A stretch of 64,000 bases of DNA from Candidatus Binataceae bacterium. GTDB lineage: Bacteria > Desulfobacterota > Binatia > Binatales > Binataceae. Under the pieces are notes generated by a model. The model was not told the DNA's origin and searched no databases. It saw only the letters and a list, made by a program, of their open reading frames with translations. The DNA is taken from positions 4,574 through 68,573 of the forward strand of contig JADMIL010000009.1 in the NCBI GenBank assembly GCA_015478645.1, written 5' to 3'. Below, one piece after another: positions 28,056-54,763 of this stretch; within the stretch, counting starts at the first letter, position 1, and the number at the start of each line of letters is the position of its first letter. Made by a program: the position numbers and the translations under genes.

Positions 28056-29717
28056 ATGGCGGCAATCAAACCTGTAGCGGTAAAAATTGTGCCATTGGGC
28101 GGCCTCGGCGAGATCGGGCTCAACCTGATGGTGATCGAATGCGCCGGCAGCGCCCTGATAATTGACGCCGGCGTGATGTTTGCCGAGGAGCGCGAACTGG
28201 GCGGCGGCCTGCTGCTGCCCGACCTTGCGTATCTCGAGCAGAGCCGCCTCAAAATCGAGGGCATCATCCTGACCCATGCGCACGAGGATCATCTCGGCGC
28301 GCTGCCGTATCTGTTGCGGAGCTGGCCCGCGCCGGTATTCGGAACTGAAGTAACACTTGCATTTGCGCGCCGCGGGCTGGCCGAAGACGGTCTGGCCGGG
28401 GCCGATTTGCGCAAGTTTGCGCCCGGCCACGAATTGGAGCTGGGACCGTTTCGGGTCGAGCCGGTGCGCGTGACCCATTCGACGCCCGATTCGGTCGCGC
28501 TCGCGATTCGCACGCCGGCCGGCCTGATCGTGCATTCGGGCGACTTCAAGATCGATCCGTCGCCGGTTGACGGGCAGCTTTTCGACACCGATCGCTTTGC
28601 CCGCCTGGGCGAGGAAGGGGTGACGCTCCTGCTGTCGGATTCGACCAACGTCGAGCGTCCGGGGCGCAGCGGCTCCGAGAGTTCGCTCAAGCCGGTGATC
28701 AAGGATCTGATCGCGCGCACGCGCGGCCGCTTTTTCCTGTCGTCGTTTTCCTCGCATCTCCATCGTATCCGCCAGCTCGCCGAAGCCGCCCATGAGGCCG
28801 GGCGTTACGTCGTGCCGCTGGGGCGGCGGATGGCGCAGAGCGTGCGCCTGGGGATCGAGACCGGGCAGCTCGAGCTGCCGCCCGGCACCTTTATCGAGCA
28901 GGCCGAGGCCGATTTCCTCGAGCCGCGGCGGCTGGCGTTTCTGGCCAGCGGCAGCCAGGGCGAGCCGCTCTCGGCGCTGGCCAAGCTCGCCGTCGATGGC
29001 CATCCGCGAGTGCGCATCGCGGCGGACGATGCGGTGGTGCTCTCGTCGCGTTTCATTCCGGGCAACGAGCGCACGATCAATACGCTGGTCAATCATCTGT
29101 GCAAGCGCGGCGCCGAGGTCTATTACGACGCGGTCGCGCCGGTCCACGTCTCGGGCCATGCCTGCCGCGACGAATTGGCCGAACTGATCCGGCTGGTGCG
29201 GCCGAAGCATTTCATTCCGATCCACGGCGAATACCGGCATCTGACGGGCCATCGCAAACTGGCGATCGCGGCCGGCGTCACGGAGCGCAATTGTTTCCTG
29301 CTCGAGAATGGCGAGACCCTGGTGCTCGAAGATGGAGCTGCGCGGCGCGGGCGGACGGCGCCGGCCGGGCGGATCGTCGCCGACGGCGAAGATCTGGGCG
29401 GGCCGGAACTGATGCGTGAGCGGCGCACGCTGGCGCATGACGGCACGGTGATCGCAATCGTCGCAATCTCGGCGCGCGACGGCAAAATCGTCGCGGGACC
29501 GGACCTGCTCTCGCGCGGCGTTGTCAGCGGCGACGGCAGCTCACCCCATCTGACCCGCGCGCGCACCGAACTCGCGCTGCGCATCCGCGGACTCAACGGC
29601 TTCGTGCGCGACGATCCGGAGCGGCTCAAGGAGGAGATGGTGCGGATGCTGCGCCGGTACTTCTCCGACGCGATTCGCAAGCGCCCGATGATCGTGCCCT
29701 ACGTCGTGGAGGTCTGA
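28056..29717 (+). CDS. rnj: Ribonuclease J (metallo-beta-lactamase / beta-CASP)
   Basis: 553 aa. [26 protein letters not shown], and the [11 protein letters not shown] motif. Confidence 0.92.
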
Positions 29718-36151: not shown

Positions 36152-37987
36152 TCAGTCGCTGTCGGCGTCGTCGCTATCGCCGGCGGCGGAGGGCAATACG
36201 CCGACCACGCGCGAATACTCGAACATCCCGGCGCCCCGCGCGTCGCCCATCTGGTAGGTCGCGAAGCCGAGCGAGGTGTGGATGCGGGTGGCGTCGAGGC
36301 CGGGCCGCGAGAGCGTCATGAAGTTGTCGGCGCGCCCGCTGAGCGTCGTGGCCACACCGTCATGCAATGTGATCGCGGCGTGAATTGGGCCGGGACGCGC
36401 GCCGGGCACAGGCGTGTCCAGATCGATCGCGCCAAGCTCGCATTCGCGCCAGGCGCCGGCGTCGAGGATGCGCGCGGTGCAGGCTTGCGGGGCGCCGTCG
36501 AAGGTCATGGTGCGGGCCTCGAGCGCGGATTGCGCCGCGCCTCCGCTGGAAAAGCATGCCCAGAGCATCCGGCGCGTGGTGAAGCGCTGAGCTCCGAGTC
36601 CCAGGCATGAGGTGCCGACGCGGGCGACTGCGTCGATCTCACGGCGCACGCCGCCGACCGTCAACGCGCCGCGCAGGCGGCCGAACCGCGCCGTGCCGGC
36701 ACGGGCTGCCGTGGCGAGATCGCTGTCGCCCGGCGCGCTATCGTCCGCGGAAGCGTCGCACGCAGGCGCGCCGCAATCGTCGAGTTCAATCGTTGCCGCA
36801 AGCTCCATCGCGGTGTCGAGTTGCCCGCCGGCCAGCGCGCGCTCGACGCTCAAGTAGGCCGCGCCGTCGTCGACCACCATCGCCGGGCCGCGAAAGCTGA
36901 GTCCGCCGCGGCCGCCCGCCAGGGTCATGCTCAGCGGACCGAGATGAATCTGCGCACCGGCAAATTCGCTCTTGCCTTCACCGGTGAACAGCGCTGCGTG
37001 GCATCCGTCGAACATCACCATGATCCGCGCGCCCGCGGCGCCCGCGCCGAAGTCGAAACTCGCCATCCCGCCTACGCGCGCATCGGGGTCGTAAAACTCC
37101 ACACCGATGCGCATCGCGGCGCCCGCCGGTGTGGCTGACACGACGCGGGCGGGACGCGGCCGCGCGTCGCGCACGACGATCATCGCCGGCGCCGCCGCAG
37201 GCGACCCCATCGATGACGCCGACGTCGCCGATGACGAAGATGCGGTGGCGGGTGCGAAGGCCTCGGCGATCGCGTCGAGATTGGACGCGCGCAACGCCCC
37301 GGGCATCCGCACGGCGACCGACATTTCGAGTTGCAGCGCATCGATCGCGCCGTGCGCGGCGAGCGCGGCAAGCTCGCGCAGCGCGGCAAGCTCACTCGCG
37401 CAATGGCGCTGGGTGAAAGCCTGGAGCAGGTTCTGACTCGCGCCGCCGGGATAGCGCAGGCCAAAGGTCGGGATGATGCCGGCGGTCGTGAGGCGCGCGG
37501 CGAGCGCGGCGACCGGTCCGTTGATGAATCCGTCGCTGGCCGAAACGTGGGCGCCCGCGGGTGGCCGCAGACGGCCGCCGGCTTCGCGCAGGCCGAGTCC
37601 CAGATCGACGCGCGGCTCGATCACGTTCCATCCGTGAATCAAGAGCACGGTCGCCCGGCCATAACGGCGGGTGATCGCGGCGACGCGCCCCACGATCAGA
37701 TCGATCAGCCAGGGCGCGCGCTGGGCGAGCTGCGCCAGGCGGTTGCAGTCGAGTTCATTGCGATCCATCGCGGCGTTGATCAAGGCCGGCGCGCCAAGCC
37801 GGCGCGCGAGTTCCCGCGTGATCGCGGCGGTCTCGAGATCGTTGACCTTGGGATGGAGCGTGGCGCGGGCGGCTGCGCCGGCCCGTCCGCCGTGTGGCGC
37901 GATCAGCAGGAGCGGCGCGTCGCCGTCGATGATCTCGAGCCAGGGTTCGGGTCCGCTGCCGGGCGCGGCGATCGCATCCATCGGCAT
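36152..37987 (-). CDS. Fusion protein: N-formylglutamate-amidohydrolase-like (FGase family) N-domain plus a ~330-aa domain of unknown function
   Basis: 611 aa. The N-terminal motifs LLLIAPHGGRAG, VNDLETAAITRELA, DRNELDCNR and VLLIHGW resemble the PHxG / DxNR / IHS motifs of FGase-family hydrolases. I recognise no family for the C-terminal half. Its ATG directly abuts the pcs stop codon. Confidence 0.55.
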   Translation of the reverse strand: MPMDAIAAPGSGPEPWLEIIDGDAPLLLIAPHGGRAGAAARATLHPKVNDLETAAITRELARRLGAPALINAAMDRNELDCNRLAQLAQRAPWLIDLIVGRVAAITRRYGRATVLLIHGWNVIEPRVDLGLGLREAGGRLRPPAGAHVSASDGFINGPVAALAARLTTAGIIPTFGLRYPGGASQNLLQAFTQRHCASELAALRELAALAAHGAIDALQLEMSVAVRMPGALRASNLDAIAEAFAPATASSSSATSASSMGSPAAAPAMIVVRDARPRPARVVSATPAGAAMRIGVEFYDPDARVGGMASFDFGAGAAGARIMVMFDGCHAALFTGEGKSEFAGAQIHLGPLSMTLAGGRGGLSFRGPAMVVDDGAAYLSVERALAGGQLDTAMELAATIELDDCGAPACDASADDSAPGDSDLATAARAGTARFGRLRGALTVGGVRREIDAVARVGTSCLGLGAQRFTTRRMLWACFSSGGAAQSALEARTMTFDGAPQACTARILDAGAWRECELGAIDLDTPVPGARPGPIHAAITLHDGVATTLSGRADNFMTLSRPGLDATRIHTSLGFATYQMGDARGAGMFEYSRVVGVLPSAAGDSDDADSD

Positions 37988-38713
37988 TCAGGGCACCCGG
38001 TGCGCGGCGCGGCGCGCCGGGTCGGCATAGAGGACGAACGACATCACAAAGTAGTAAACGACGAAGGCGAGCGACGTGTAAAGCGCCACGCGGCTGTATG
38101 CGGGGAGCGTCGCGATCACGACGGCGGTGGCAATCGCCCAGATGACAGCCAGTGTCAGCGTGAGCGGGCGCATCGCGGCCGTGCGGCTCGGATAGATATA
38201 GCCGATCGGCACGAAGACCATCGCGGCCAGAATCGCGACGATGACGCCATTGAGCGCGGGCACGAGACCGAGACAAAACAGATAGAGCGCGACGATATTC
38301 CAGTACGACGGGAAGCCGCGGAAGTAGTGGTCGGGGGTCTTGGCGTCGCGGTGGCAAAAGCCGTAGCCGCTCGCGACCATCACGCTCGCGGTGATTGCAA
38401 AACCGCTTGGCCCTTGCGGCAGAATGCCCGCGCGCAGCATCAACAGCGCCGGTGCGGCGACGTAAGTCAGATAGTCGACGACGTTGTCGAGCAGCGCGCC
38501 ATCGAATTGCGGGATGCGATCGCGCACGCGCAGCGCGCGGGCGAGTGTGCCGTCGGTCGCGTCGATCGCGATCGCCACGCCCATCGCGGCGAACGCGGTG
38601 CGCCATTCGCGGTCGGCGATGCAATTGAGGGCGAAGAGTCCGGCGACCGCACCGAGTGCGGTGTAAAGATGCACCGTCCAGGCGAATGCGAGGAGGATGC
38701 GGTCGCGCGCCAT
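37988..38713 (-). CDS. pcs: Phosphatidylcholine synthase (CDP-alcohol phosphatidyltransferase family)
   Basis: 241 aa from MARDRILLAFAWTVHLYTALG. DATDGTLARALRVRDRIPQFDGALLDNVVDYLTYVAAPA and TPDHYFRGFPSYWNIV closely parallel rhizobial Pcs (DGIDGPIARK...NWSGDTLDNVIDYVTYVLLPA; DEYFFSGFPVVWNMV), recalled from memory. Confidence 0.85.
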   Translation of the reverse strand: MARDRILLAFAWTVHLYTALGAVAGLFALNCIADREWRTAFAAMGVAIAIDATDGTLARALRVRDRIPQFDGALLDNVVDYLTYVAAPALLMLRAGILPQGPSGFAITASVMVASGYGFCHRDAKTPDHYFRGFPSYWNIVALYLFCLGLVPALNGVIVAILAAMVFVPIGYIYPSRTAAMRPLTLTLAVIWAIATAVVIATLPAYSRVALYTSLAFVVYYFVMSFVLYADPARRAAHRVP

Positions 38714-38736: not shown

Positions 38737-39270
38737 TCAGCGATCCGGCTTGAAGCCGCGCGGCCCGAAGTGATCTTCGAGCACGGTCATGAAGGGACCG
38801 CAGGCGCGCCGCTGTTTGACCAGCGCCATCGCCTCGTCGAGCGAAAGTCCGCCGTGCGCGCGCAGGTAGGCGATCGCGAGCGTGGGCGCGCGGTTGAGGC
38901 CGGCGTTGCAATGGAGAAATACGCGATGGCCCGCGCCGAGCAGCGCCGCCAGATCGTCGAGCGCGGCGACCAGCCGATCAGCCATGTCGTCGGCACTGCC
39001 GTCCTGGATCGGCGTGCGCACCAGACTGATCCGATGGCGCGCGCAGACCTCGCGCAGCGCGTCGATATCGATCGCGTTGATGCGCAGGTCCTCATCGTCC
39101 TGCAGATTATGAATCGCGGTCACGCGATGCTCGCGCGCGAGCCATTCGATATCGTCGACACGCGGGTATTCGCCGACCAGCAGATGCGGGGTGATCTCGC
39201 TGACGGTCGGCCGCACGTCGCCGCGCGTGGGGCGCGGTCCGTTATCGCGTCGTGGGCTAAACCATTCCAT
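38737..39270 (-). CDS. Dual-specificity (Cys-based) phosphatase
   Basis: 177 aa. Active-site loop FLHCNAGLNRAPT (HCx5R). No Shine-Dalgarno sequence is evident, and an AT-rich palindrome lies directly upstream. Confidence 0.8.
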   Translation of the reverse strand: MEWFSPRRDNGPRPTRGDVRPTVSEITPHLLVGEYPRVDDIEWLAREHRVTAIHNLQDDEDLRINAIDIDALREVCARHRISLVRTPIQDGSADDMADRLVAALDDLAALLGAGHRVFLHCNAGLNRAPTLAIAYLRAHGGLSLDEAMALVKQRRACGPFMTVLEDHFGPRGFKPDR

Positions 39271-39352: not shown

Positions 39353-42300
39353 TCAACCTTCGGCGCCTTTGGCCGCATGCGGAGTGCGGTGGCGCGGCGG
39401 CGCTTCGGCCGCGTGATCAATTACGTGATCGTCCGAATGATCGGTCGCATGTTCGATCGCGGCGCCATCAGCAGCGCCGGCGGCGATCGCGGCGGCATGC
39501 TTGGGATCGTGGACGTTGGCTTGGGTGGCCAACGAGCGGCGCGCGGCGCGCGGTCGATCCCCGGCGAGTTCGACGATGGCGGCGCGCAGATGCTCGGCGA
39601 GCCGCCGATAGGCCGCCGCGCCGGTGGTGCCTTGCGCAACGTCGAGCAGTTCCGCCGCGCCGATTACGCGGCCGATGCGCACCTCGACTGGCGCATGGCG
39701 TGGCACGAGCGCGCCTTTGCCCAGCACCTCAAAGGAGCCGCGAATATGGATCGGAAGCACGTCGCATCGCGATTGCATCGCGAGGAAGCCGGCGCCGCTC
39801 TTGAATTCGTGGATCGCGCCGTCGGGTGAACGGGTGCCTTCGGGAAACATCAGGACGCTGCGGCCGGCGGCGAGTTCGGCGAGCGCGCCGTCGAGCGAGT
39901 CGAGTTGCGAGCGCTCGCGATCGATCGCAAGCAGGTGGGTAAAGTTGCGCGCGACGAAGCGGCGCAGCGGCGTCTTGAAGAAATAATCCTTCGCGGCGAG
40001 CACCACCAGATCGCGGCCGGCGGTGCCGAGCGCATATGCGATCAGGCCGAAGTCGAGATGGCTGGCGTGATTGGCGACGACGATCACGTTGCGGTTCGCC
40101 GGGATATTGCCGCGGCCCATCACGCGCGGCTTGAGCCACGAATCGAACGCCGCGCCGATCGAGCGCCGCAGCGCGAACTCACCGATGCGCCGGAGCGGGG
40201 CCGGGAGTTCGACGGTGAAGGGCTCGGCGAAGCGCGCGTAAGAGGGTAGGCGAGGCCGTACGGTGCCGTCGCCGGCCAGGCGTTGCAGATCGCCGACCGT
40301 CGCGGCCGCGGAAAGCTCGTCGGCGGTGAGCTCGCGGCCCGCCTTGACGGCGATCTGTTCGGCGAGTTCGGCCAGTGCGAGCGAGTCGAGTCCGAGATCC
40401 TCGATGAGCCGCGTGCCGGTGCCGATTGGTACCGTGCCGATCGCGACTTGCGCCAACGCCTGCGCGAGCCACGGGACGATTTCGTCGCCGGTTACCGCGG
40501 CCTCGCCGCCGCGATTGTCGAGCGGACGATCGAGGATCTCGCGCAGCCGCGCGGCGACTTCCGCGCGCTTGATCTTGCGTGTGCGGGTGCGTGGCAATTC
40601 GGTCTCGCTGAAGCGCAGGATGCGCACGCGGCTGTGCGGGTTGAGCCCGGCGCCGACGATCGCGAAGTGCGCGCGCACGCGGTCTTCGATCGTGCGGCGG
40701 CTCTCGCCGCGCGCGTAGGCCGGCACGACCAGCGCGGCCACCTGCTCGCCCGCGCCGATAGTCAGTCCGGCGACCGCGATCTCTTTGATAAAATGGCTGT
40801 GGCCGTAGGCCTGTTCGATCTCGTCGATATAGATATTGTTGCCGCCGGCGTCGACGATGACGTCCTTGGCGCGGCCCACGATGTAGAGCCGGCCGGCGTC
40901 ATCGAAGCGGCCGAGGTCGCCGGTATGCAGCCAGCCGTCCTTGAGCACTTCGGCGGTCGCGGCCGGATTGCGGTAATAGCCGCTCATCACGTTGGGGCCG
41001 CGCGCGATGATTTCGCCGATGCCGCCCGCATCGGCGGGGCTGTCGATGCGCACCTCGAGCTTGCCGAGCGGCTGGCCGACCGAGCCCGCAATTAGCGGCT
41101 CGTCGGGCCGCGCGACGCTCAGCACGGGCGCGGCCTCGGTCAGGCCGTAGCCTTCGAGCAGCTTGATGCCGAGGTCGTGGAAAAAGGTGGCGACGCGCTG
41201 CGGCAAGGCCGCGCCGCCGCTGACGGCGAGCCGCAGATGGCCGCCGAGCGCGTTGTGCGCCGGCCGAAAGAGCATTGCGCCAAAGTTGACGTGATAGTCC
41301 CGGTCGAGGCGCCGATTGAGGTTGCGCAGGCGATCGAAGGCCGCCGCGAACAGCGGGCCACGCCCCTCGACTTCGTCGACGATCCGCCGGTGCACCGCTT
41401 CCCATAGCGCCGGCACGCCGATCAGCGCGGTCGGCCGCACGTCGGCCAGCGTGCGCGACAAATTGGCGGCATCTATGCCCAGCGGGTAGACGATGCGCGC
41501 GCCGCTGGCAATCGGCAGCAGCAGGCCGCAGGTGAATTCGAGCGTGTGATGGAGCGGCAGGATCGAGAGCACCGTGTCGTCGGCGCCGAGCGCGAAGACT
41601 CGCGCGAGCATCGCGACTTCCGCGGTGAAATTGCCGTGCGAGAGCATCACGCCCTTGGGCGTGCCGGTGGTGCCGGAGGTGAAGACGATTGACGCGAGCG
41701 TCTTACGCTCGGCGGCGACCGGCGCGCCCGGCGCGGTGCGCAATACGAAGGGGCGCTGCAATTCGCCGATTTCAATTTCGACGGCTCCAGGAGCGGCGGT
41801 GCGGACCGCCTTGCCGAGCCGCTTGCGGCAGGCGGACGAAATCAGCGCGGCCCGCGGCGCGGCGATGCGGCCGATGGCGGCGAGTTCGTCGGGGGCGATC
41901 AGATGGTCGAGCGGCACGGCGACCGCGCCCGCGTAGAGAATCGCGAAGTAGGCGATGACCCAGTCGGGCGAGTTCTCCGCGATCAGCAGGACGCGATCGC
42001 CCGGCTTGATCGCGCGTCCACCGAGCATCAGGCCGCCGCGATGGGCGCGGTCGCGCAGCTCGCGATAGCTGATCGGCGTGCGTTGGCCGGCGAGTTCGCG
42101 CGCCTCGAGCGCGGGTGCGGCGCCGAATCGATGGGCCGCGCTGTCGAGCATTTCGATCAACGTGCGATGGCGCGGGACGCCGCGCGGGCGCGCCCGCGTA
42201 TGCAATTCGAGCTGGCCGAAGATATGGCGGCGCAGGCCCGGCAGATGGACGTCGATCCAGTAGCGGGCCCAGTCGATCTTTTCCGGATGATAGGGATGGC

Positions 42301-43855
42301 GCGCGGCGTCGGCGGGTTCGAGCGTGGCGTAAAGCGCGCGGATATTTTTGCCGTGAAAGGTGTAGACCAGATCCTGGATATAGGGCCGGTAGACCTCGAC
42401 CAGCGATCGCGCCATCGCGGTGTTGTCGGCTAGCTTGGCGATCCGATCCTCGAACTTGCGCGCCGGCGCCGACTCCTCGCCCATCACCGTGCGGGCCAGC
42501 GCGGCGGCCTGCTTGAGCATCGCGGGCAGCGTCGAGCTGAACATCTCGTAGGTGCGATGGGACACCACAACGGCTTCGAGATGCGGTGCGAGCTTGCCCA
42601 TCGGACCGCCGCGCCGCCGATGCTCGCGGCGGTTGCTGAGCGCGGTCAGCTCCACCAGCCGGCGCATCGGCAACGGATTAACGTCGGAGGTGCAGAGCTG
42701 ATAGATGGGCTGATGGCGGCCGAGCAGGAGTGCGGCCAGGATCGGGACGATCGCGTGGGCCGCGAGATCGACCGGGATGACGTCGAGCACCAGGTCGCCG
42801 CGCGCCGGATAAAATCGATAGCCGCGGCCCGCCAGATAAGTCAGCGGCGCGCTGGTGTTAACGCCCTGGTTCCATCCCGGAAGCGGGTCGCAAAGCGCGC
42901 TCTCGATCACCGACGGACGGACCACGGTCGCCGCGACCGCGCCGCGCGCGGTCATCACGATCTGCTCGCCGAGGCTCTTGGTATAGCTGTAGGTGTTGGG
43001 CCATCCCCAACTGAGCGCGCGGCGGCGGCCGATCGCCTTGAGCCGATCCTCGACCCAGCTTTTGCGCCGCGCCTCGATCGAACGATCATGATGGTCCGCG
43101 CGGTCGTGATGGTCGCCGGCGGCGTCGCTCTCGCGATCGCCGGCCGCGCCGAGATGGAACTCGGCCAGGTGCGACTCGTCGTGCGATTCGGCTTCGACGC
43201 GATCGATCGCGGCCTGCGCGTCGCGCAGTTCGCGGCGCAGATTGAAGTTGCGCCGTCCGTTGGGACACCAGTCGGTCGGCAGGTCGTCTTCGTAGCGCTG
43301 GCCGTCGGCAACGCCCGCGGCATAGCAGGTCGAGACGTGAAGGAGGGCGGCGCCGTGGGTGCGGCAGAACTCGACGACGTTGCTCACGCCGTCGGCGTTG
43401 ATTGCGATCGCCTTGGCCAGCGAGGCCTCGAAGTTGACCAGCCCCGCGCAATGGATTACGGCGTCGATCGATCCGGTACGCGGCATCCCGGCGCCGTCGG
43501 CGGCGAGGCCGGGCTCCGTGATATCGCCCGCGATCACCGCGACCTTACCCTCGACATACTGGTCGAAGCGCGTGCCCAGGCGCTCGCGCAGAGGAGCCAG
43601 CGCGGCCGAGTCGAGAATCTCGCGGCGCAAGCGATTGAGGCTCGAGCGGCGATCGCCGCGAATCAGCAGATAGATGCGATCGAGTTCGGGGTGATGTTCG
43701 AGCAGGATCGCGAGCAGCACTTTGCCGAGAAAGCCGGTCGCACCGGTAATCAGCAGACGGCGCTTGCGCAGTACCTGCTCGAGCGGCGGCATCGCGCCCG
43801 CGGCGGCCGCGGGTTTGCGTACACGGGCGCGACGCGGAGCGGGCCTATTCGACAT
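39353..43855 (-). CDS. Multidomain lipid megasynthase: fatty-acyl reductase (NAD_binding_4), AMP-dependent acyl ligase, ACP, 1-acyl-glycerol-3-phosphate acyltransferase (ElbD-like)
   Basis: 1500 aa. The Rossmann motif ITGATGFLGK (aa 36-45) and YSYTK (aa 289-293) mark the reductase domain. The AMP-binding motifs are IVFTSGTTGTPKG (aa 723-735), EGYGLTE and WLHTGD. The phosphopantetheine site is LGLDSLA (Ser1158). The PlsC motifs are NHASHLD (H1263-x4-D1268) and FPEGTRS (aa 1337-1343). Confidence 0.9.
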   Translation of the reverse strand: MSNRPAPRRARVRKPAAAAGAMPPLEQVLRKRRLLITGATGFLGKVLLAILLEHHPELDRIYLLIRGDRRSSLNRLRREILDSAALAPLRERLGTRFDQYVEGKVAVIAGDITEPGLAADGAGMPRTGSIDAVIHCAGLVNFEASLAKAIAINADGVSNVVEFCRTHGAALLHVSTCYAAGVADGQRYEDDLPTDWCPNGRRNFNLRRELRDAQAAIDRVEAESHDESHLAEFHLGAAGDRESDAAGDHHDRADHHDRSIEARRKSWVEDRLKAIGRRRALSWGWPNTYSYTKSLGEQIVMTARGAVAATVVRPSVIESALCDPLPGWNQGVNTSAPLTYLAGRGYRFYPARGDLVLDVIPVDLAAHAIVPILAALLLGRHQPIYQLCTSDVNPLPMRRLVELTALSNRREHRRRGGPMGKLAPHLEAVVVSHRTYEMFSSTLPAMLKQAAALARTVMGEESAPARKFEDRIAKLADNTAMARSLVEVYRPYIQDLVYTFHGKNIRALYATLEPADAARHPYHPEKIDWARYWIDVHLPGLRRHIFGQLELHTRARPRGVPRHRTLIEMLDSAAHRFGAAPALEARELAGQRTPISYRELRDRAHRGGLMLGGRAIKPGDRVLLIAENSPDWVIAYFAILYAGAVAVPLDHLIAPDELAAIGRIAAPRAALISSACRKRLGKAVRTAAPGAVEIEIGELQRPFVLRTAPGAPVAAERKTLASIVFTSGTTGTPKGVMLSHGNFTAEVAMLARVFALGADDTVLSILPLHHTLEFTCGLLLPIASGARIVYPLGIDAANLSRTLADVRPTALIGVPALWEAVHRRIVDEVEGRGPLFAAAFDRLRNLNRRLDRDYHVNFGAMLFRPAHNALGGHLRLAVSGGAALPQRVATFFHDLGIKLLEGYGLTEAAPVLSVARPDEPLIAGSVGQPLGKLEVRIDSPADAGGIGEIIARGPNVMSGYYRNPAATAEVLKDGWLHTGDLGRFDDAGRLYIVGRAKDVIVDAGGNNIYIDEIEQAYGHSHFIKEIAVAGLTIGAGEQVAALVVPAYARGESRRTIEDRVRAHFAIVGAGLNPHSRVRILRFSETELPRTRTRKIKRAEVAARLREILDRPLDNRGGEAAVTGDEIVPWLAQALAQVAIGTVPIGTGTRLIEDLGLDSLALAELAEQIAVKAGRELTADELSAAATVGDLQRLAGDGTVRPRLPSYARFAEPFTVELPAPLRRIGEFALRRSIGAAFDSWLKPRVMGRGNIPANRNVIVVANHASHLDFGLIAYALGTAGRDLVVLAAKDYFFKTPLRRFVARNFTHLLAIDRERSQLDSLDGALAELAAGRSVLMFPEGTRSPDGAIHEFKSGAGFLAMQSRCDVLPIHIRGSFEVLGKGALVPRHAPVEVRIGRVIGAAELLDVAQGTTGAAAYRRLAEHLRAAIVELAGDRPRAARRSLATQANVHDPKHAAAIAAGAADGAAIEHATDHSDDHVIDHAAEAPPRHRTPHAAKGAEG

Positions 43856-45485
43856 CCGCGATCACCAGCGGGGGTAGATGAAGATAGGTGATGCTCGCCG
43901 AACGGCCGTGATCGGCGGTGGCCATCGCGATCGCCTCGTCGAGCGTATCGGCCGCCTCCCAGCCCATCCGCGCGGCGACCTGCGGCTCTTCGCAGCCGGC
44001 TGCGATCACGCGGCCGACGTGCTGGCGCGCGGGCTCGCCCCAATACCACATGTAGAACGGATGCACGCCGTGGTAGGCATGGCCGAAGCGATACATATGC
44101 TTGTAGGTCGGATTGATCGCGAACTCGGCCTCGAAGCGCTTCTCCAGTTGCATCGCGTCGGTGGTCTCGGCCAGGCAGCGATGGAAAAACTCGATGTAGC
44201 TCGGATGATGCTCGGGGTGAAATTCGTCGCGCAGCGGATGACAGATGATCATCGTGCCGCCCGGCTTCACCAGCGGCTGATTGCGATACATGTTGAACAG
44301 GTAGCCCAGCCCGGTGCACTGTACGAGGACCGGATTCATGATCGAGTTGACGTTGTACGGACAGATGTACGGCACGCCGACAATCAGGATGTCAGACTGG
44401 CCTTTGACCGGCACCGCGTATTGCTGGAAGACCCGCGCCAGGGCCTGCCGATGCACCGCTTCGGTCTCGCCCGCCCACACGCCCGTCAAACCATAAGGTG
44501 CGGCGTACTGATGCATCATCTGGCGGCGGGTGTCGTTGGAGAGATTGCCGAGCGTCCAGCGGAAACCCTTGAGCCGCGCGCGATCCCAGTCGTTGAACTG
44601 GTCTTCGTTCTTTTGCAGAAAGTCGAGCATCCCGCCGTACATCTGGGTATTGACGGCGGTCTCGATGGAAAAAACGTTGAGCTGCGCATTGACCAGCCGG
44701 CCCATCCGGTTGGCCGAGCTGTGCAGTGCCGAGCGCTTGGGATCCATGTAGGAGTGGCTGTCGCGCAGAGTCGCCGGATTATGATGATGGCGCAGGCTCT
44801 GGTAGGGCGCGAGACCGACGGCGACCGATTTGTGCCCGCCATCCATCGGCACCAGATTCAAGTTGAGATAGATGACCAGGTCGGATTCGGCGGCGCGCCG
44901 CGAGAGCCAGACCTCTTCGCCATGATCGGTCTTGCCGAGCATCGCGAGTTCGGCGCGGTTTTCGCCGTCGAAGTTGTAGAGCCGGTCGGGCCAGTACTGC
45001 TTGAAGGCGCGCTCGCCGACCATCCGGCGAATCTCGCTCTCGGTCATCCGCCGATGGAGCGCGGTGGCGACGATCAGATGAACGTCGTCGACGCCGTAAT
45101 CGGCCAGCGTCTGGAGCACCTGGTTGAGCAGGCGCTCGCGGATATCGGGCCGGCGCATCGGCGGCAGCGGCAGGCTGATGTCGTCCAGCGCGATCGTCAC
45201 GCGCATGTTGGGGTTGAGTTGCGCGAAGAGCGGGTCGGCGTTGAGCGGACGCAGCAGCGCATAGCGAATCGCGGCGTCGGGGTCGGGCAGGGCGTCGAGC
45301 GGCGGCGGCGGATAGATCACCCGGGTGCCGGCCGGCAACTTCTCGAACATGAACTCGTCGCCGTAGGGAATCAGGCGCGGCGCGGAGCGGCGGTTAAGGG
45401 TCACGACCAGGTCGCGGCGCGCGCCAACCTCATGCTTGAGCTCAGCCTGCTTGAGCTCTTTGAGCTTAGCTTCGGGCCGCGCCAT
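43845..45485 (-). CDS. LarA-like protein (DUF2088, lactate-racemase N-terminal domain family)
   Basis: From MARPEAKLKE. Segments ALDDISLPLPPMRRPD, IVATALHRRMT and PMDGGHKSV resemble the LarA D-x-TRP, ATGxHR and GG-x-K regions. Overlaps the megasynthase start by 11 nt and the HAD gene stop by 20 nt. Confidence 0.65.
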   Translation of the reverse strand: MARPEAKLKELKQAELKHEVGARRDLVVTLNRRSAPRLIPYGDEFMFEKLPAGTRVIYPPPPLDALPDPDAAIRYALLRPLNADPLFAQLNPNMRVTIALDDISLPLPPMRRPDIRERLLNQVLQTLADYGVDDVHLIVATALHRRMTESEIRRMVGERAFKQYWPDRLYNFDGENRAELAMLGKTDHGEEVWLSRRAAESDLVIYLNLNLVPMDGGHKSVAVGLAPYQSLRHHHNPATLRDSHSYMDPKRSALHSSANRMGRLVNAQLNVFSIETAVNTQMYGGMLDFLQKNEDQFNDWDRARLKGFRWTLGNLSNDTRRQMMHQYAAPYGLTGVWAGETEAVHRQALARVFQQYAVPVKGQSDILIVGVPYICPYNVNSIMNPVLVQCTGLGYLFNMYRNQPLVKPGGTMIICHPLRDEFHPEHHPSYIEFFHRCLAETTDAMQLEKRFEAEFAINPTYKHMYRFGHAYHGVHPFYMWYWGEPARQHVGRVIAAGCEEPQVAARMGWEAADTLDEAIAMATADHGRSASITYLHLPPLVIADVE

Positions 45486-46284
45486 CGAGCTTCTCCTCGG
45501 TCCAATCTTGCGCCGCAGTGCGCGGATCGAGATCGCCGGCCGCGCCTCGGCGCGCCTGCGCCTTGGCAAAGCGCAGCACGGGCCATTGGCGGCTCTGCGC
45601 GATCGCTCGCAGGCGCCGGTCGGGATTGACCGCGACCGGATGGCCCAGGGCGATCAGGAAAGGCAGGTCATAGCGCGAATCGGCATAACCCCAGCATTTG
45701 GCCAGGTCGACGCGGTGTTCGGCGGCGTAGGTCGCACACCAGGCGGCTTTGGCTTCACCCGCCATCACCGGCTCGCGCAGGCGGCCGGTCGCGCGGCCGC
45801 GGCTGTAGATGAGACGGTTGGCGACGAAGGTGTCGATACGCAGGCGGCTGGCCAACGGCGCAACGATGAAGTCGGGCGAACCGGTGACCAGCACGGGCGC
45901 GAAGCCGGCGGCGCGGTTGGCCTCGATAATGTCGAGCGCGCGCGGATACAGATGGGCCATCAGGATGCGCTCGCAATACTCTTCGCCCAGCGCCTCGAGG
46001 CGGTCCTGCGAGAGGCCTTTGAAGGTCTCGTAGAGGGCGACGTTGAGCAGATGGCGATCGCGCCGCTCGGCCATGTAGAGCATCGGCAGGCGTGCGACGA
46101 AGGCGGCGAGATAGCTGACCCGCCCGCTCCATTCGCCGAGATTGGCGAATATAAAGAACGCTGCATGTACCAGGTTGAGATCCATCAGGGTGCCGTCGAG
46201 ATCGTAAAACGCCGCGGCTTTGGGCACGCCGCGCGCGGCGCGCGCACGCGACCTGGGAGTTCTGGTTTTTGGCTGAACTGACAT
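45466..46284 (-). CDS. HAD-superfamily subfamily IB hydrolase (SerB/PSPase-like phosphatase)
   Basis: 272 aa. Motif I FYDLDGTL, motif II LVTGSP, motif III/IV GEAKA...YADSRYDLP. Confidence 0.8.
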   Translation of the reverse strand: MSVQPKTRTPRSRARAARGVPKAAAFYDLDGTLMDLNLVHAAFFIFANLGEWSGRVSYLAAFVARLPMLYMAERRDRHLLNVALYETFKGLSQDRLEALGEEYCERILMAHLYPRALDIIEANRAAGFAPVLVTGSPDFIVAPLASRLRIDTFVANRLIYSRGRATGRLREPVMAGEAKAAWCATYAAEHRVDLAKCWGYADSRYDLPFLIALGHPVAVNPDRRLRAIAQSRQWPVLRFAKAQARRGAAGDLDPRTAAQDWTEEKLDGAARS

Positions 46285-46285
46285 G

Positions 46286-46942
46286 TCAGTCTATTTTCGG
46301 GCCATAAAAAATTTGATCCTGTGCAGGCGTCGCAGCGCCGAGACCGGCGGCTTCGAGTAATTCGGGCCGGGCGACGCCGCGCAGGCCGAAATCGAGCACC
46401 TCTTCGGCCAGCGCGCCAACGTCGCGCCGCTGATCGCGCGACAACTGGCCGACGATTTCTTTGACCCCGCCCAGGATGCAATAGGCGACCGGGCGCGTGT
46501 CGCATTCGCGCACCAGGTTCATCTCGATACCGAGGTCCAGCGAGCGCTGGATCTGATCCGTCACGCGCTCGTAAAAGTCGTGGATGCGTGCGTCGAGGTC
46601 ACGGTCGAAGCCGGTCGAATGGTTGAGCAGAATATCGGTCAACTCGCGCTCGGCCAGCACGAAGGTCAGGACGCGCTTGAGGTTCGAGCGCAACTGCTCA
46701 ACCGGGTCGGGCTCGCCGGGACCGATCTTGAGCCGGCGGATGCGGCTGCGCAATTCGCCGAGCGCCTGTTCAAGCAATTCCGCAAAGATGTCACGTTTGT
46801 TCTGGAAGTAAAGATAGAACGTGCCGCGGGCGATGCGCGCCTGCGCGATGATGTCGGCGATATTGGTGCGGTGATAGCCCTTACGGGCAAACAGCCGCTT
46901 GGCGTGGCGCAGAACCTGCGCGCGCCGGGCCTGTCGCTCCAT
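46286..46942 (-). CDS. TetR-family transcriptional regulator
   Basis: From MERQARRAQVLRHAKRLFARKGYHRTNIADIIAQARIARGTFYLYFQNK (HTH). GGAGG lies 4 nt upstream of the ATG. The stop is 1 nt from the HAD gene start. Confidence 0.88.
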   Translation of the reverse strand: MERQARRAQVLRHAKRLFARKGYHRTNIADIIAQARIARGTFYLYFQNKRDIFAELLEQALGELRSRIRRLKIGPGEPDPVEQLRSNLKRVLTFVLAERELTDILLNHSTGFDRDLDARIHDFYERVTDQIQRSLDLGIEMNLVRECDTRPVAYCILGGVKEIVGQLSRDQRRDVGALAEEVLDFGLRGVARPELLEAAGLGAATPAQDQIFYGPKID

Positions 46943-47093
46943 GCATCCTCCGCGTGGCCGGACAGTAGCGGCGGGAAGTTTAGGAGTCAAACCTGCCATG
47001 CGCCGCTATCCACAAATTATCAACCGTCAATCAACAGTTCCCGATCGGCCGGCCGATTCCGGAGGCTCGAGCGGGCCGTCGCGTCGCCCAGCG

Positions 47094-48237: not shown

Positions 48238-51200
48238 ATGACTCGCCTGAAGATCAGAGCGCGGCTCGACCGCATCAACGCGCGCGCCTCGGCCATCGCC
48301 CACGCCCGCCGCACGCGCCGCGTGGCGATCGGCGTGGCCATCACGATCGTGGTCTATGGTTTGCTGGGATTTATCGCCTTGCCGATGATTCTGCGGCATG
48401 TCGTGACCGGGCAGGTCGCGACCAGCCTGCACCGACCGGTGAGCGTCGGCAAAATTGTCTTCAATCCGTACACCTTGCGGCTTCAGGTAGACGATCTGCG
48501 GGTGGGCGAGCGCGAGGGAGCGCAAGCGTTCGCTGGCCTGGGGCATCTGGACGTCAAGGTCTCATGGACGTCGCTGTTTCGGCTGGCCCCGGTCATCGGT
48601 GAAGTCAAGCTCGAGCGTCCGCAGGTGCATGTCGTGCGGGTCGCGGAGAACCGCTTCAACTTCTCCGATTTAATCGCCCCATCCGCATCGCCGAAGCCGC
48701 CGCCGGGCAAGCCGACGCGATTTGCGGTATCGAACATTCAACTCCACCAGGGGTCGGTGCTATTCGACGACCAGGTCACCGGCCAGCAGCACAAGATCGA
48801 GAAAATCGAACTCGACGTGCCGTTCGTGGCCAACTTGCCGGCCGACGTCAATATCTACGTGCAGCCGTTGCTCGCGATGGTGATCGACGGCAGTCCGCTG
48901 CGGGTGGCGGGCAAGGGGCGCCCGTTCAACGCCGAACCCGAGTCGATCATGCAGGTAAATCTGCGCGACCTGAAACTTTCGCAGTATCTTGCCTATGTGC
49001 CGCGCAAGCTCCCGGTCAAGCTCCCGCAGGGGACGCTGTCGGCGCACCTGCTGGTCCATTTCGTCAACGCGTTTGCTGGACCGGCGATTCGGATTGGTGG
49101 CGCGGTGACGCTCGATCAGATCGATCTGCGCGACGCCGCCGACGCACCTCTGCTCGCGCTCAAGAGCGCGGTGGTGAACCTCGACGACGTCGATACGCTT
49201 CAGAACTTCGCCCACGTCGGCGCGATCACGCTCGACGGTCTCGAGACCTACGTGGTGCGCAATGCGGACGGCACCACCAACCTGACGCCATTGACCGCCG
49301 CTAATCCGCCCGCCGCCACGTCAGTGCCGGCTCGCGCATCTTCGCCACAGGCTTCGCCCATTCCGCAGGGCACGACGGCCGCGCCAGCGCCGCCGGTGAA
49401 GGCCGCCATCGTCGCGGCGAAGGTGGCCCCGTCGGCGCGCCCGGCACCGGCGATCGCGACACCGGTAATTGCGCCGCCGTCACCCGTCGCGACGGTCAGT
49501 GCGGCCATGCCAATCGCGTCGGCGAGTGCGTCGATGACCCCGGCCGCAGCGTCAACCGCGGCGAGCTTAGCACCGTCAATCATGGAGACGGCTCCCACAA
49601 AGACGGCGAGCGGTGGCACGGCGACTAGCGGGACGAGCGGCGCGTTCAATCTGATTCTCGATTCGTTCGCGCTGACCAACGGCGCGGTGCATCTGACGGA
49701 CCACAGCGCGGCGGTGGCGACCACGGCCAACCTGCAGGCGATCCACGCGACGCTGACCAACTTGCGCACGGCGCCGCAATCGCCACCGGCCCCCTTCGCG
49801 GTCGCTGGCACGCTGAGCGGTGGCGGCAGCGTCGCGATCAAGGGTGTGCTGAACTTGCTGCAATCGCAGGTCACGACCGACCTCACGCTGGCGCAAATCG
49901 ATGTGCCGGCCTTGCAGGGCTTCGCGCAGACTTTCCTCGCGGCGAAAATCGCGACCGGCAAGCTGAACGTGCAGGCCAGCGTCGCGACGCAATTCGCGGC
50001 CGGCAAGTTCAATGTTCACGTTGAGCCGGCGACCCTTGCGCTCGACGATTTCGATATCCGGCCGCCGGGCGCACATCAGCCGCCGATCACCTGGAAGACG
50101 ATCGCGGCGACGATCGGCCAGGTCGATCTCGCGTCGCATCAGGCGACCGTCACGGAGCTGCGCACCGACAGTATCCATCTGTCGGTGCTGCGCGATCGCA
50201 AAGGGGCATTGTCGCTCGCGTCGTTAATCCGCAAGCCGGGCGAACCGCCGGGCGCCGCTTCCGCACCGGAGAACCGCCCCGCGCGACGGCCGGCGCGTGA
50301 GGCACATTCGCGCGCTGAAATGGCACGGGCCGAGCGGGCGCGCCGGGCAGCGGAGCGCGCGGCGTATCGGACGCAGGAGGAGCGCAGGCTTGCGGCGCGG
50401 ACGCACGGCGGTATTCGCGCAGCCGCCAAGCCGGCCACACCGGTGGTCTCGCCCACGCCGCCGGCGGGCGGATGGCAGTACAAGATTGCGGCGGTCACGC
50501 TGGAGAAATCCGCGATCGCGATTGAAGATCATACCGTGGCGCGGCCGGTCAAGATCGGCGTCGCGCCGCTCAATATCCGGCTCAAGGATGTCACCAGCGA
50601 TTTCGCCAAGCCGTTTTCGCTTGAGCTCGACGGCACGGCGGACAAGACCGGCACTTTCGCGATCGACGGCACCGCCGCGATCGAGCCGCTCAAGGCCGAC
50701 CTGCGGGTGACCACGCGGCGGCTCGACGTGGCGCCGGCCACGCTCTATGCGCAGAGCAATCTAAACGCGACGATCACCAGCGCCGCACTGACCACCAAGG
50801 GTGCGGTGGCGCTCGCCGACCCGGGTGGCAAGTTGCGCGTGAGCTATCGCGGCGACGCGACGCTAACCAACGTGCGCGTGCTCGACAAGCTGACCAGCGA
50901 TCTGTTCCTGCGCTGGAACGCGCTGAGCGTCCATCGAATCGATTTCCGGATGGGCGAGGGTCAGCCCAGGATTCATATCGGGGCGATCGCGCTCGACGAT
51001 TTCTACACCCGGCTGATTCTGAATGCCGACGGCCATCTGAACGTGAGCGATATCACGTCGTCGGCACGCCAGGCGCCGACTTCGCTGACCCGTCCGGGGG
51101 CCAAGCCACTGCCCGCGCCATCCGCACCTAGCGCGCCGGCGCCGGGGCCATCCGAGGCGGGGGCGCCCTCCGCGCAGACCTCGGCGACGGCAACTCCGGC

Positions 51201-52434
51201 GGCTGCGCTACCGCCGCCGACACCGCATCCGATCGCCGCCGATATCGCGATTGGGCAGATTGGGCTGCGCGGCGGCCACGTCAACTACACCGACAATTTT
51301 ATCAAGCCGAACTACACCGCCGATTTGACCGCGATTGCCGGGCACGTCGGTGAGTTCGGCACGCGCTCGACGGCGCCGGCCGACGTCAACCTCGACGGCC
51401 TGATCAACGGCAACGCGCCAATCAGCATCCAGGGATCGATCAATCCGCTCGCGCCGATGGCTGCGGTCGACATCAAGGCCAAGGCCACCCAGATCGAGTT
51501 GACCGACCTGACGGCCTACTCGAGCAAGTACACCGGCTATCCGATTACCAGGGGCAAGCTCTCGGTCGACGTGCATTACGTGCTCGATCACGACCTGCTG
51601 ACCGCGCAGAATCATATCCTGCTCGACCAGTTGACCTTCGGCGACAAGGTCGAGACGCCGGGCGCGATGAATCTGCCGCTGCGCCTGGCCGTGGCGATTC
51701 TCAAAGACTCCAAGGGCCAGATTAGCCTGGATCTGCCGGTCTCGGGATCGCTCGCGGATCCGCAATTCAGCCTCGGCGGGATCATCTGGCACGCGATGGT
51801 AAGCCTGCTGCTCAAGGCGGTAACGTCGCCATTCCGGTTGCTGGCGGCGGCGTTGCCGGGCGGCGGCAACAGCGGCCAGGATCTGTCCTATGTGGAATTC
51901 ACTCCAGGGTTTGCGACGCTGCCGCCGGCCAGCCGGCAAAAGCTCGATTCGGTGGCCGCGGCGCTGAAGCAACGACCGTCGCTCAAGCTGAGTATCGCGG
52001 GCGTGGCCGACCCGGCCCTCGATCGGCCGGGACTGCATGACGCGAAACTCTACGATCTGATCAAGGCGGCGAAGATCCACGACCTGGGCGGCGCGGCGGC
52101 GGGCATCGATCCCGACACCGTATCGGTCGGTCCCGACGATTACGCCAAGTACCTCAAGCGGGTCTACAAGGCGGCCAAGTTTGACAAGCCGCTCGACGTG
52201 CTCGGGATGAACAAATCGCTGCCGCCCGACGAGATGAAAAAGCTGCTGATTAAAAATATGCAGGTGAGCGACAAGGATCTGGCGACGCTGGCCGATGCGC
52301 GCGCGGCGGCGGTGCGCAAATATATGAGCAAGCGGATCGATCCCGCGCGGCTGGCGGTGGCCGCGCCGAATCTCACCGCCGCAGGGATTACGGATAAAGG
52401 GCCGGCCACGCGGGTCGCCCTGTCGCTCGAATGA
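48238..52434 (+). CDS. Giant envelope protein, DUF748 / AsmA-TamB-like
   Basis: 1398 aa. N-terminal anchor VAIGVAITIVVYGLLGFIALPMIL followed by the typical DUF748 opening (VSVGKIVFNPYTLRLQVDDLRV...LERPQVHVVR...RFNFSDL). Long beta-rich repeats, three low-complexity inserts, and a C-terminal region weakly OmpA_C-like. Confidence 0.75.
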   Translation: MTRLKIRARLDRINARASAIAHARRTRRVAIGVAITIVVYGLLGFIALPMILRHVVTGQVATSLHRPVSVGKIVFNPYTLRLQVDDLRVGEREGAQAFAGLGHLDVKVSWTSLFRLAPVIGEVKLERPQVHVVRVAENRFNFSDLIAPSASPKPPPGKPTRFAVSNIQLHQGSVLFDDQVTGQQHKIEKIELDVPFVANLPADVNIYVQPLLAMVIDGSPLRVAGKGRPFNAEPESIMQVNLRDLKLSQYLAYVPRKLPVKLPQGTLSAHLLVHFVNAFAGPAIRIGGAVTLDQIDLRDAADAPLLALKSAVVNLDDVDTLQNFAHVGAITLDGLETYVVRNADGTTNLTPLTAANPPAATSVPARASSPQASPIPQGTTAAPAPPVKAAIVAAKVAPSARPAPAIATPVIAPPSPVATVSAAMPIASASASMTPAAASTAASLAPSIMETAPTKTASGGTATSGTSGAFNLILDSFALTNGAVHLTDHSAAVATTANLQAIHATLTNLRTAPQSPPAPFAVAGTLSGGGSVAIKGVLNLLQSQVTTDLTLAQIDVPALQGFAQTFLAAKIATGKLNVQASVATQFAAGKFNVHVEPATLALDDFDIRPPGAHQPPITWKTIAATIGQVDLASHQATVTELRTDSIHLSVLRDRKGALSLASLIRKPGEPPGAASAPENRPARRPAREAHSRAEMARAERARRAAERAAYRTQEERRLAARTHGGIRAAAKPATPVVSPTPPAGGWQYKIAAVTLEKSAIAIEDHTVARPVKIGVAPLNIRLKDVTSDFAKPFSLELDGTADKTGTFAIDGTAAIEPLKADLRVTTRRLDVAPATLYAQSNLNATITSAALTTKGAVALADPGGKLRVSYRGDATLTNVRVLDKLTSDLFLRWNALSVHRIDFRMGEGQPRIHIGAIALDDFYTRLILNADGHLNVSDITSSARQAPTSLTRPGAKPLPAPSAPSAPAPGPSEAGAPSAQTSATATPAAALPPPTPHPIAADIAIGQIGLRGGHVNYTDNFIKPNYTADLTAIAGHVGEFGTRSTAPADVNLDGLINGNAPISIQGSINPLAPMAAVDIKAKATQIELTDLTAYSSKYTGYPITRGKLSVDVHYVLDHDLLTAQNHILLDQLTFGDKVETPGAMNLPLRLAVAILKDSKGQISLDLPVSGSLADPQFSLGGIIWHAMVSLLLKAVTSPFRLLAAALPGGGNSGQDLSYVEFTPGFATLPPASRQKLDSVAAALKQRPSLKLSIAGVADPALDRPGLHDAKLYDLIKAAKIHDLGGAAAGIDPDTVSVGPDDYAKYLKRVYKAAKFDKPLDVLGMNKSLPPDEMKKLLIKNMQVSDKDLATLADARAAAVRKYMSKRIDPARLAVAAPNLTAAGITDKGPATRVALSLE

Positions 52435-54391: not shown

Positions 54392-54763
54392 CGTCGACTC
54401 TCCTTCACGCGCGCGTGGCGGCCCGCCCTGGTCTCGCGCGTATTTCGCGAATACCTTTTCAATATCTGAATATCTCTCGACTAAGAAATCTCTTTTGGGT
54501 TCTCCATAGAACGTAGTCCGACTCTCGCACGAGGTGTTTCCCTGCGTCAATGAGTTACACTGGAGAGGTCAGTCGTGCTGGAATGAGTTGAGGCAAAAAG
54601 AAGAAAGCGCGTGATACTCATTCGCCACGCCAGGCACGTCGCAACGCGGCAGAAAGGTGTATTTCAGCGCTGCAAGTTTGCGGTCGAAGAACTGAAAGAA
54701 TCGGCGTGTTGACTCTTTCGCGCGAGTCGTCGGACGGATAAAGACGGACGGTGGAACCTGATC

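Follow-up and report, generated by a model that had tools for sequence, protein, structure and literature searches.

A Candidatus Binataceae protein that is very probably an orthologue of ElbD, and the lineage-specific operon that encodes it

The subject of this work is a 1500-codon open reading frame (ORF) at 39353..43855 on the minus strand of a 64,000-nucleotide stretch of Candidatus Binataceae DNA (contig JADMIL010000009.1), which is referred to here, at its full length, as the window. The product of this ORF is very probably the Binataceae orthologue of ElbD, an enzyme of the bacterial aerobic ether-lipid (elb) pathway. The original prediction, made from the letters alone, had described a 1500-aa fusion of reductase, adenylating ligase, carrier protein and acyltransferase that works as a self-contained assembly line from fatty acid to glycerolipid. 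The fusion is borne out as a single frame that begins with ATG and runs without interruption, the motifs named in that prediction are all found in the translation at their predicted positions, and the four catalytic modules are all significant in a Pfam profile search. The ElbD family is already known; the Binataceae protein adds a member to it, which resides in a lineage-specific variant of the operon. As judged by sequence, it has every feature by which an ElbD would be recognised except the linkage to elbE.

Relationship to the myxobacterial ElbD

In Myxococcus xanthus, ElbD consists of FAR1-like, acyl-CoA-synthetase, acyl carrier protein (ACP) and AGPAT-like domains and is encoded in the elbA-E operon (PMC9131029; PMC13012113). 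The M. xanthus protein (MXAN_1528, Q1DC43; Lorenzen et al. 2014 via PMC9131029) has the same four domains as the Binataceae protein, in the same order; the two are also similar in length (1466-1500 aa) and have their catalytic motifs in common. The direct comparison used the orthologue of Myxococcus stipitatus (P0182, 1474 aa) as a congeneric stand-in for M. xanthus ElbD. BLASTP aligned the two proteins collinearly from end to end, with 39% identity over 1453 aa and 891 bits, so the alignment with ElbD that was suggested in the original prediction points to an orthologue. The M. stipitatus protein and that of a Myxococcaceae locus (L048) share the Pfam set of the Binataceae protein and its order. 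The Binataceae protein differs from those of Myxococcus in a His/Asp-rich insertion in the reductase at approximately aa 225-260 and in a low-complexity C-terminal tail beyond approximately aa 1437.

The gene neighborhoods also correspond. The M. stipitatus locus (L081) reads epimerase (ElbA), HAD protein (ElbB), a Lar_N protein of 536 aa (ElbC), ElbD and a second epimerase (ElbE), and the placement of elbB (HAD) and elbC (Lar_N) directly upstream of elbD is common, in order and in orientation, to the myxobacterial and the Binataceae operons. Unlike the myxobacterial operon, the locus of the Binataceae, whose phylum is Binatota instead of Myxococcota, lacks elbA and elbE; it has as extras a TetR regulator, a dual-specificity-type (DSP) phosphatase, a Pcs-like transferase and a 611-aa protein.

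What is known of ElbD function comes from M. xanthus (PMC9131029). Deletion of elbD removes most of the alkyl and alkenyl ether lipids, iso-15:0 aldehyde was found to depend on elbD, and the ligase and ACP activities of the protein were confirmed in vitro. The last of these agrees with the idea, already part of the original prediction, that the acyl chain would be carried by an ACP in cis. The glycerolipid product foreseen there can be given a name that the prediction lacked, since the known class is that of the ether (alkyl, alkenyl) glycerolipids. ElbD homologues have been reported from Myxococcota, Acidobacteriota, Poribacteria, Latescibacterota and others, and CDP-alcohol transferases beside elbD have been noted in sponge symbionts.

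Domains and catalytic motifs

The Pfam search places a FAR-type (fatty acyl-CoA reductase) domain, an adenylating ligase, an ACP and a PlsC-type acyltransferase on the one polypeptide, in this order:

42749..43750, minus strand: FAR-type reductase Rossmann domain (aa 36-369; Pfam NAD_binding_4, 8e-48)
42218..42658, minus strand: FAR C-terminal domain (approximately aa 400-546; phmmer match to 7EOZ and sub-cutoff Pfam Sterile)
40574..42145, minus strand: acyl-adenylating (ANL) domain (aa 571-1094; Pfam AMP-binding and AMP-binding_C)
40286..40468, minus strand: acyl carrier domain (aa 1130-1190; Pfam PP-binding, 24.6 bits, cutoff 20.8)
39743..40126, minus strand: PlsC/AGPAT-type acyltransferase domain (aa 1244-1371; Pfam Acyltransferase, 5e-25)

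Conservation within these domains was read from an alignment of nine sequences, Binataceae proteins together with five from myxobacteria, and from 119 full-length Binataceae-type homologues, of which 110-119 retain the catalytic motifs. The reductase carries TGATGFLG at aa 37-44 and the YxxxK motif as YSYTK (Y289/K293), both invariant in the alignment. The FAR Rossmann and YxxxK residues are retained in 116-117 of the 119 homologues, which indicates selection for catalysis.

The region of approximately aa 400-560, in which the original prediction could recognise no motif, is now assigned. When aa 22-560 were searched by phmmer against solved structures, the full-length fatty acyl-CoA reductase 7EOZ (532 aa) was matched at E 3.6e-46, and the second aligned stretch pairs aa 269-546 of the ORF with residues 226-507 of the solved chain. 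Pfam Sterile falls on aa 479-546 with 26 bits, under its cutoff of 35.4, and is also the model named for most homologues. Residues Y498, F500, N504, R506, D528, W529 and H537 are common to the Binataceae and Myxococcus proteins in this part. By these sequence matches the region is a FAR C-terminal domain and no linker. The 7EOZ match, the Sterile match and the invariant residues together argue that the N-terminal 546 aa contain a complete FAR1-type reductase and not a terminal reductase of the type found in nonribosomal peptide synthetases (NRPS) or carboxylic acid reductases (CAR). The N-terminal position of the reductase was called unusual in the original prediction; this holds against the terminal reductases of NRPS and CAR enzymes, but it is the standard layout for ElbD.

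In the ANL domain, AMP-binding covers aa 571-961 (2e-75) and AMP-binding_C aa 1012-1094; the core motifs are SGTTGTPKG at 727 (A3), GYGLTE at 902 (A5), HTGD at 977 (A7), GRAKD at 994 (A8) and Lys1094 (A10), and fatty acyl-CoA synthetases in the PDB match the domain at E 1e-43. The predicted phosphopantetheine site of the ACP is Ser1158 in LGLDSL (codon 40382-40384), and a G.DS[LI] motif occurs in all 119 of the full-length homologues. The acyltransferase has NHASHLD, an HX4D motif with H1263 and D1268, and FPEGTRS at aa 1337, again both in 119 of 119; its sole relative by sequence among solved structures is the T. maritima PlsC 5KYM (E 5e-17). Invariant in the nine-sequence alignment are G38/T40/G41/F42/G44, Y289/K293, T726-G735, E901-E907, T978-D980 and K1094 in the reductase and the ligase, and D1157-S1158-L1159, H1263/D1268 and F1337-S1343 in the ACP and the acyltransferase.

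The operon around elbD

The protein had been taken to be self-contained. This does not hold, because the gene shares a conserved operon with elbB and elbC, and because in M. xanthus, too, other elb genes matter (PMC9131029). The genes of the operon are the following:

46286..46999, minus strand: TetR-family regulator (Pfam TetR_N and TetR_C_24), first gene of the conserved Binataceae operon
45466..46284, minus strand: elbB orthologue, HAD-IB family phosphatase (Pfam HAD, 2e-33; TIGR01490, 115.6 bits, cutoff 98.3)
43848..45485, minus strand: elbC orthologue, LarA superfamily (NF052592, Pfam Lar_N)
39353..43855, minus strand: probable elbD orthologue (FAR, ligase, ACP, acyltransferase)
38737..39270, minus strand: dual-specificity-type phosphatase (Pfam DSPc, 1e-14), 82 nt downstream of elbD
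37988..38713, minus strand: Pcs-like CDP-alcohol phosphatidyltransferase (Pfam CDP-OH_P_transf; best NCBIfam models Pcs)
36152..37987, minus strand: 611-aa protein, function unassigned, starting directly past the stop codon of the Pcs-like gene

The genes overlap or are separated by gaps of at most 82 nt, an operon-like spacing, and elbD is thus predicted to be transcribed within a tight operon of seven genes: tetR, elbB, elbC, elbD, the DSP phosphatase gene, the pcs-like gene and the 611-aa gene. A scan of the operon for promoters and terminators gave no promoter-like sites, and terminator-like sites at chance level. The ElbB of the window is 37% identical to M. stipitatus ElbB over 218 aa. 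The ElbC proteins of the two organisms are 55% identical over 520 aa with zero gaps; the elbC ORF of the window reaches 45569, its conserved part begins at 45407, and the probable start is near 45485.

Downstream of elbD, the DSP phosphatase has its closest solved relatives in plants, namely the glucan phosphatases LSF2 and SEX4 (E 6e-18). The best NCBIfam models for the Pcs-like protein reach E 6e-62 and 209 bits, under their cutoffs of 300-440. Its ORF extends to 38911, with a probable start at Met67, and multiple hydrophobic segments can be read from the sequence, as can the motif DGTLAR-x12-G-x3-D-x3-D. The spacing DG-x2-AR-x12-G-x3-D-x3-D is what we take to be the Pcs form; a literature search on Pcs motif spacing found nothing. 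The DSP phosphatase and the Pcs-like gene stand where elbE is located elsewhere, which suggests that head-group completion is encoded in the operon.

The last gene, which is translationally coupled to the Pcs-like gene, encodes the 611-aa protein. It has no Pfam, NCBIfam or PDB sequence match, and its homologues are only Binataceae "hypothetical proteins". In an AF2 model (pLDDT 78, pTM 0.81), Foldseek finds an N-formylglutamate-amidohydrolase fold for the predicted N-terminal domain and an AttH/CrtC-like double beta-barrel for the predicted C-terminal domain. The barrel was likened to the Fsa2/Phm7 pericyclases, 25-phosphosteroid lyase and kievitone hydratase, which are enzymes acting on hydrophobic substrates.

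ElbC and the nickel-pincer proteins

ElbC has been labelled as of "unknown function" in the ether-lipid literature (PMC9131029). For the protein of the window, NCBIfam NF052592 ("NPN-dependent hydroxyacid isomerase, LarAH14/15/16 family"; cutoff 740) gives 837 bits, a match that places it in the LarA superfamily of nickel-pincer nucleotide enzymes. Compared with L. plantarum LarA (5HUQ), the catalytic His108, the cofactor-tethering Lys184 and the nickel ligand His200 are kept; His174 aligns with an Asn in this distant alignment, so the second catalytic histidine is apparently missing. The ElbC of M. stipitatus (L081, 6382-7992) is likewise a member of the LarA superfamily.

The LarA groups themselves have been described in the literature. 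Groups 14 and 15 are without a His174 equivalent (PMC12611868), and LarAH14 showed no activity on any of the 2-hydroxyacids tried (PMC7583248). In the supplementary table of the LarA survey, groups 14-16 occur with genes for PlsC-type acyltransferase, SerB-like HAD and long-chain acyl-CoA synthetase at 75-100%. Thioester-reductase genes are listed at 50% for group 14, NDP-sugar epimerase genes at 150% (two per locus) for group 15 and 38% for group 14, and SWIB genes at 33% for group 15. This gene context of groups 14-16 is the elb operon. A literature search found no paper connecting LarA or nickel-pincer enzymes with ether lipids. No other protein of the operon is as well conserved as ElbC, which has 80-90% identity within Binataceae as against approximately 65% for ElbD. 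Because of the LarA match and this conservation, a role of ElbC, as a nickel-pincer enzyme that shuttles hydride, in ether-bond formation or in the redox chemistry of the glycerol backbone can be put forward as a testable hypothesis, which we rate as unproven.

Distribution of the operon and the absence of elbE

The closest relatives of the ElbD of the window are found in Candidatus Binataceae/Binatus metagenome-assembled genomes (MAGs), one at 93% identity and the rest at 57-75%; next come the Myxococcota ElbD proteins at approximately 40%. These MAGs were once filed under "Deltaproteobacteria", and their phylum is Candidatus Binatota. The gene order from tetR to the 611-aa gene is kept in approximately 55 Binataceae species genomes, in which the same convergent housekeeping genes also follow the operon. 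The rest of the window consists of ordinary chromosomal genes, such as those for FtsK, LolA, a MiaB-like protein, DksA, an Mrp/ParA-like ATPase, Lhr, RecO and SSB, and the base composition of the operon is like that of its flanks; neither the gene content nor the base composition of the window gives a sign of recent transfer of the operon.

An independent scan of metagenome contigs was anchored on ElbC instead of ElbD, with loci counted as Binataceae-type where ElbC is at least 80% identical and as other lineages where it is 52-64% identical. The HAD gene lies upstream of ElbC in all 27 Binataceae-type loci and in 35 of the 43 loci of other lineages, and a complete ElbD lies downstream in 13 of the 13 Binataceae-type loci that are long enough, as compared with 16 of 23. 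ElbE follows ElbD in none of 10 Binataceae-type loci, versus all 14 of those from other lineages. These counts make elbB-elbC-elbD, rather than elbD-elbE, the widely shared core. In the "Myxococcaceae bacterium" MAG loci L045-L050, elbC was sought beside elbD and is not adjacent; the upstream genes vary, and the upstream ORFs first picked in these loci gave no Pfam matches.

The missing elbE leads to the points that weigh against the assignment of an ElbD with an ether-lipid role. ElbE is an extended short-chain dehydrogenase/reductase (SDR) protein that directly follows ElbD in all Myxococcota loci examined. A tblastn search found no homologue in the 64-kb window or in 24-kb Binataceae loci, where the single match was a stretch of 21 aa in the Rossmann motif of ElbD itself, although the gene could lie elsewhere in the genome. 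In M. xanthus, inactivation of elbE lowers the ether lipids and an extra elbD gives no rescue, and isolated M. xanthus ElbD gave no demonstrable acyltransferase activity or fatty alcohol (PMC9131029). Pontiella strains with elbD homologues showed no ether lipids (PMC11868695), identity to the characterised ElbD clade is just 39%, and the literature searched holds no biochemical or lipid data for any member of the Binatota, organisms which are uncultured.

Proposed mechanism and its alternatives

A scheme of five steps can be proposed for ElbD and its partners. In the first, the ANL domain would adenylate a long-chain fatty acid and attach it, through a thioester bond, to the phosphopantetheine group of Ser1158; for M. 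xanthus ElbD the step was shown in vitro, and for Binataceae it is suggested by the conserved motifs. In the second, the FAR1-type domain, with its Rossmann and C-terminal parts, would use NAD(P)H to reduce the ACP-bound acyl chain to an aldehyde or alcohol, a step of which only the elbD-dependent aldehyde was seen in M. xanthus (PMC9131029). Partner enzymes would then join the alkyl chain to a glycerol-phosphate backbone through the ether bond. In the fourth step, the PlsC-type domain would move a second ACP-bound acyl chain onto the glycerol backbone, most likely at sn-2 of a 1-alkyl (or acyl) glycerol-3-phosphate, as its similarity to PlsC suggests. Finally, as the conserved gene order would have it, the Pcs-like transferase and the phosphatases may complete the head group in Binataceae. 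The channelling of substrate foreseen in the original prediction is thus reasonable from the sequence, and the step scheme would make ElbD the central channelling enzyme of a multi-enzyme pathway, hence not a self-contained one.

A bolder version would see in the Binataceae operon all that is needed to turn a free fatty acid into an ether-linked lipid of the phosphatidylcholine type without ElbE, with ElbC forming the ether link. In this version the nickel-pincer ElbC, with its single histidine, would briefly oxidise a glycerol-phosphate intermediate at its C2 hydroxyl (a "borrowed hydride"), the acyl or hydroxyl group at C1 would be swapped for the fatty alcohol made by ElbD, and the hydride would then be returned. 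We regard it as unlikely, if worth stating.

Three other enzyme systems help to place the scheme proposed for ElbD. The eukaryotic peroxisomal entry into ether lipids (ACSL, FAR1, GNPAT/AGPAT, AGPS) has the FAR1-type reductase in common with it, including the C-terminal domain, and the Binataceae ligase and acyltransferase would take the roles of ACSL and GNPAT/AGPAT. The eukaryotic pathway uses separate enzymes and CoA, whereas ElbD has fused activities and an ACP in cis. AGPS, the FAD-dependent alkyl-dihydroxyacetone phosphate (DHAP) synthase, is not encoded in the operon or in the 64-kb window. The CAR and NRPS enzymes likewise couple adenylation, a carrier domain and a Tyr/Lys SDR-type reductase; their reductase is C-terminal and without the FAR C-terminal domain, while that of ElbD is N-terminal and FAR-type, with a PlsC-type transferase after the carrier. 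Identity as a CAR was rejected, with 164 bits on the NCBIfam CAR model (cutoff 1300) and a reductase of another type at the other end. The third system, Aas, also pairs an acyltransferase of the PlsC type with an enzyme that adenylates acyl chains and loads them on ACP, and it gives weak NCBIfam matches; its domain order is opposite to that of ElbD, and it has no fused ACP and no reductase.

The product may be of another kind altogether. If the fatty alcohol made by the reductase were the main output, and the acyltransferase served only to esterify this alcohol or a glycerol backbone, the pathway would end in a fatty alcohol or wax-type neutral lipid with no ether bond. The N-terminal half is indeed a complete FAR of the alcohol-forming type, elbE is absent from the window and the Binataceae loci, and some of the organisms that bear elbD show no ether lipids (PMC11868695). 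The acyltransferase, however, is of the PlsC type (HX4D, FPEGTR and the 5KYM match) and not a wax synthase or DGAT, the linkage to elbB and elbC is as strict as in the proven ether-lipid operon, and a phospholipid head-group transferase is conserved downstream. We consider such a product improbable.

Slightly less probable still is a salvage function like that of Aas, in which exogenous fatty acids would be activated on the protein's own ACP and used to re-acylate lysophospholipids, the reductase being minor or regulatory. Aas, too, proceeds from adenylation by way of an ACP to a PlsC-type transferase, the NCBIfam Aas models match at E 5e-62, and many ElbD-like proteins of other phyla are without a FAR domain (loci L072-L078). 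Yet the scores of 210 bits on NF006386 and 178 on NF005291 are far under the cutoffs of 1221 and 1349, and the domains run in the opposite order, on which grounds identity as Aas was rejected; the FAR residues are kept in nearly all homologues (116-117 of 119, as above), and the full-length orthology is to ElbD instead of Aas. The ether-lipid role of ElbD is the favored reading.

Integrity of the reading frame

The original prediction had named an assembly artefact as the finding that would undo the fusion. Split forms of elbD, with the reductase apart from the ligase, do occur in Poribacteria and Acidobacteriota (bioRxiv 10.64898/2026.06.23.733905), but the notion that separate genes were joined here by an assembly error or a frameshift is already refuted: an uninterrupted ORF of 1430-1500 aa is found in approximately 120 homologue clusters, among them multi-megabase contigs and a closed chromosome, which come from well over 100 independent assemblies (JGI, ENA, NCBI and Logan); the codon-position GC is even along the whole ORF; and the alignment to myxobacterial ElbD is collinear over every domain boundary. 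Among the best 120 clusters, which hold the closest homologues, 119 have proteins of at least 1380 aa with the motifs kept.

GC in the elbD ORF is 0.84 at codon position 3 and 0.50 at position 2, in a window of 65-70% GC, and this is the pattern of the genuine genes there; under the same GC filter, the long antisense ORFs do not have it. The sole uncertainty about the ORF is the translation start, that is, whether the product has 1500 or 1479 aa. The first ATG (43855) shares bases with the elbC stop codon (GATGTCGAATAG), and conservation begins at Met22 (nt 43792), which is also the start of the 1479-aa gene call P0001 of the protein collection.

Three other giant ORFs of the window were considered as a second ElbD-like gene, and all were rejected: the ORF at 13540-17991 encodes a hybrid histidine kinase, that at 21114-25880 an Lhr helicase and that at 48238-52434 an AsmA/DUF748 protein.

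Other features of the window

The last of these, a 1398-aa AsmA/DUF748 (TamB-like) protein on the plus strand, has a direction of transcription that leads away from the operon. Such proteins have been implicated in carrying lipids to the outer membrane. That the gene lies beside the operon is probably a coincidence, since just one other Binataceae locus (L041) has this adjacency.

Further along, the GC content falls to 0.54-0.60 over 54000-60400, as against 0.65-0.70 elsewhere, around a tRNA-Arg(TCG) at 58536-58612. This stretch holds a 786-aa ORF without a Pfam match (56042-58402, minus strand) and a DUF1329 protein (59003-60379); insertion of a genomic islet at the tRNA may account for it. 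Two ORFs on the minus strand have a recognisable domain only in their C-terminal part, namely 18159-20876 (905 aa, whose Cys/Met-metabolism PLP domain is confined to aa 528-903) and 27414-29438 (674 aa, whose SSB domain is confined to aa 534-638). In both, the high-GC frame has probably been called too long and the true start comes later, and genuine N-terminal extensions are possible. ARAGORN reports a 92-nt tRNA-Ala(GGC) at 11049-11140 (minus strand) within an ORF for an outer-membrane efflux protein (10703-12604), which is likely a false positive, because Rfam reports none at the gathering threshold. The Rfam and tRNA scans of the window gave only this call and the tRNA-Arg, and nothing that bears on the elbD operon.

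Significance for the Binataceae

Few genetic markers can be used to find bacteria that make ether lipids, and ElbD is one; the lipids in question include precursors of the branched tetraethers (brGDGTs). The brGDGTs serve as palaeoclimate proxies, and it is still largely unknown where such lipids come from in peat and soil. A full-length ElbD with its FAR domain, accompanied by elbB and elbC, seems to belong to the syntenic core of Candidatus Binataceae, and the names of the MAGs that carry related loci indicate peat, palsa and soil. Our literature searches found nothing joining the Binatota or Binatia to ElbD or to ether lipids, and the Binataceae are therefore a candidate lineage of ether-lipid producers that has so far gone undiscussed. 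Should the ElbE-independent, nickel-pincer version of the pathway turn out to be true, the formation of the ether bond in aerobic bacteria would be nickel-dependent, and the Binataceae, often met with in metagenomes from peat and soil, would be ether-lipid producers that have escaped notice.

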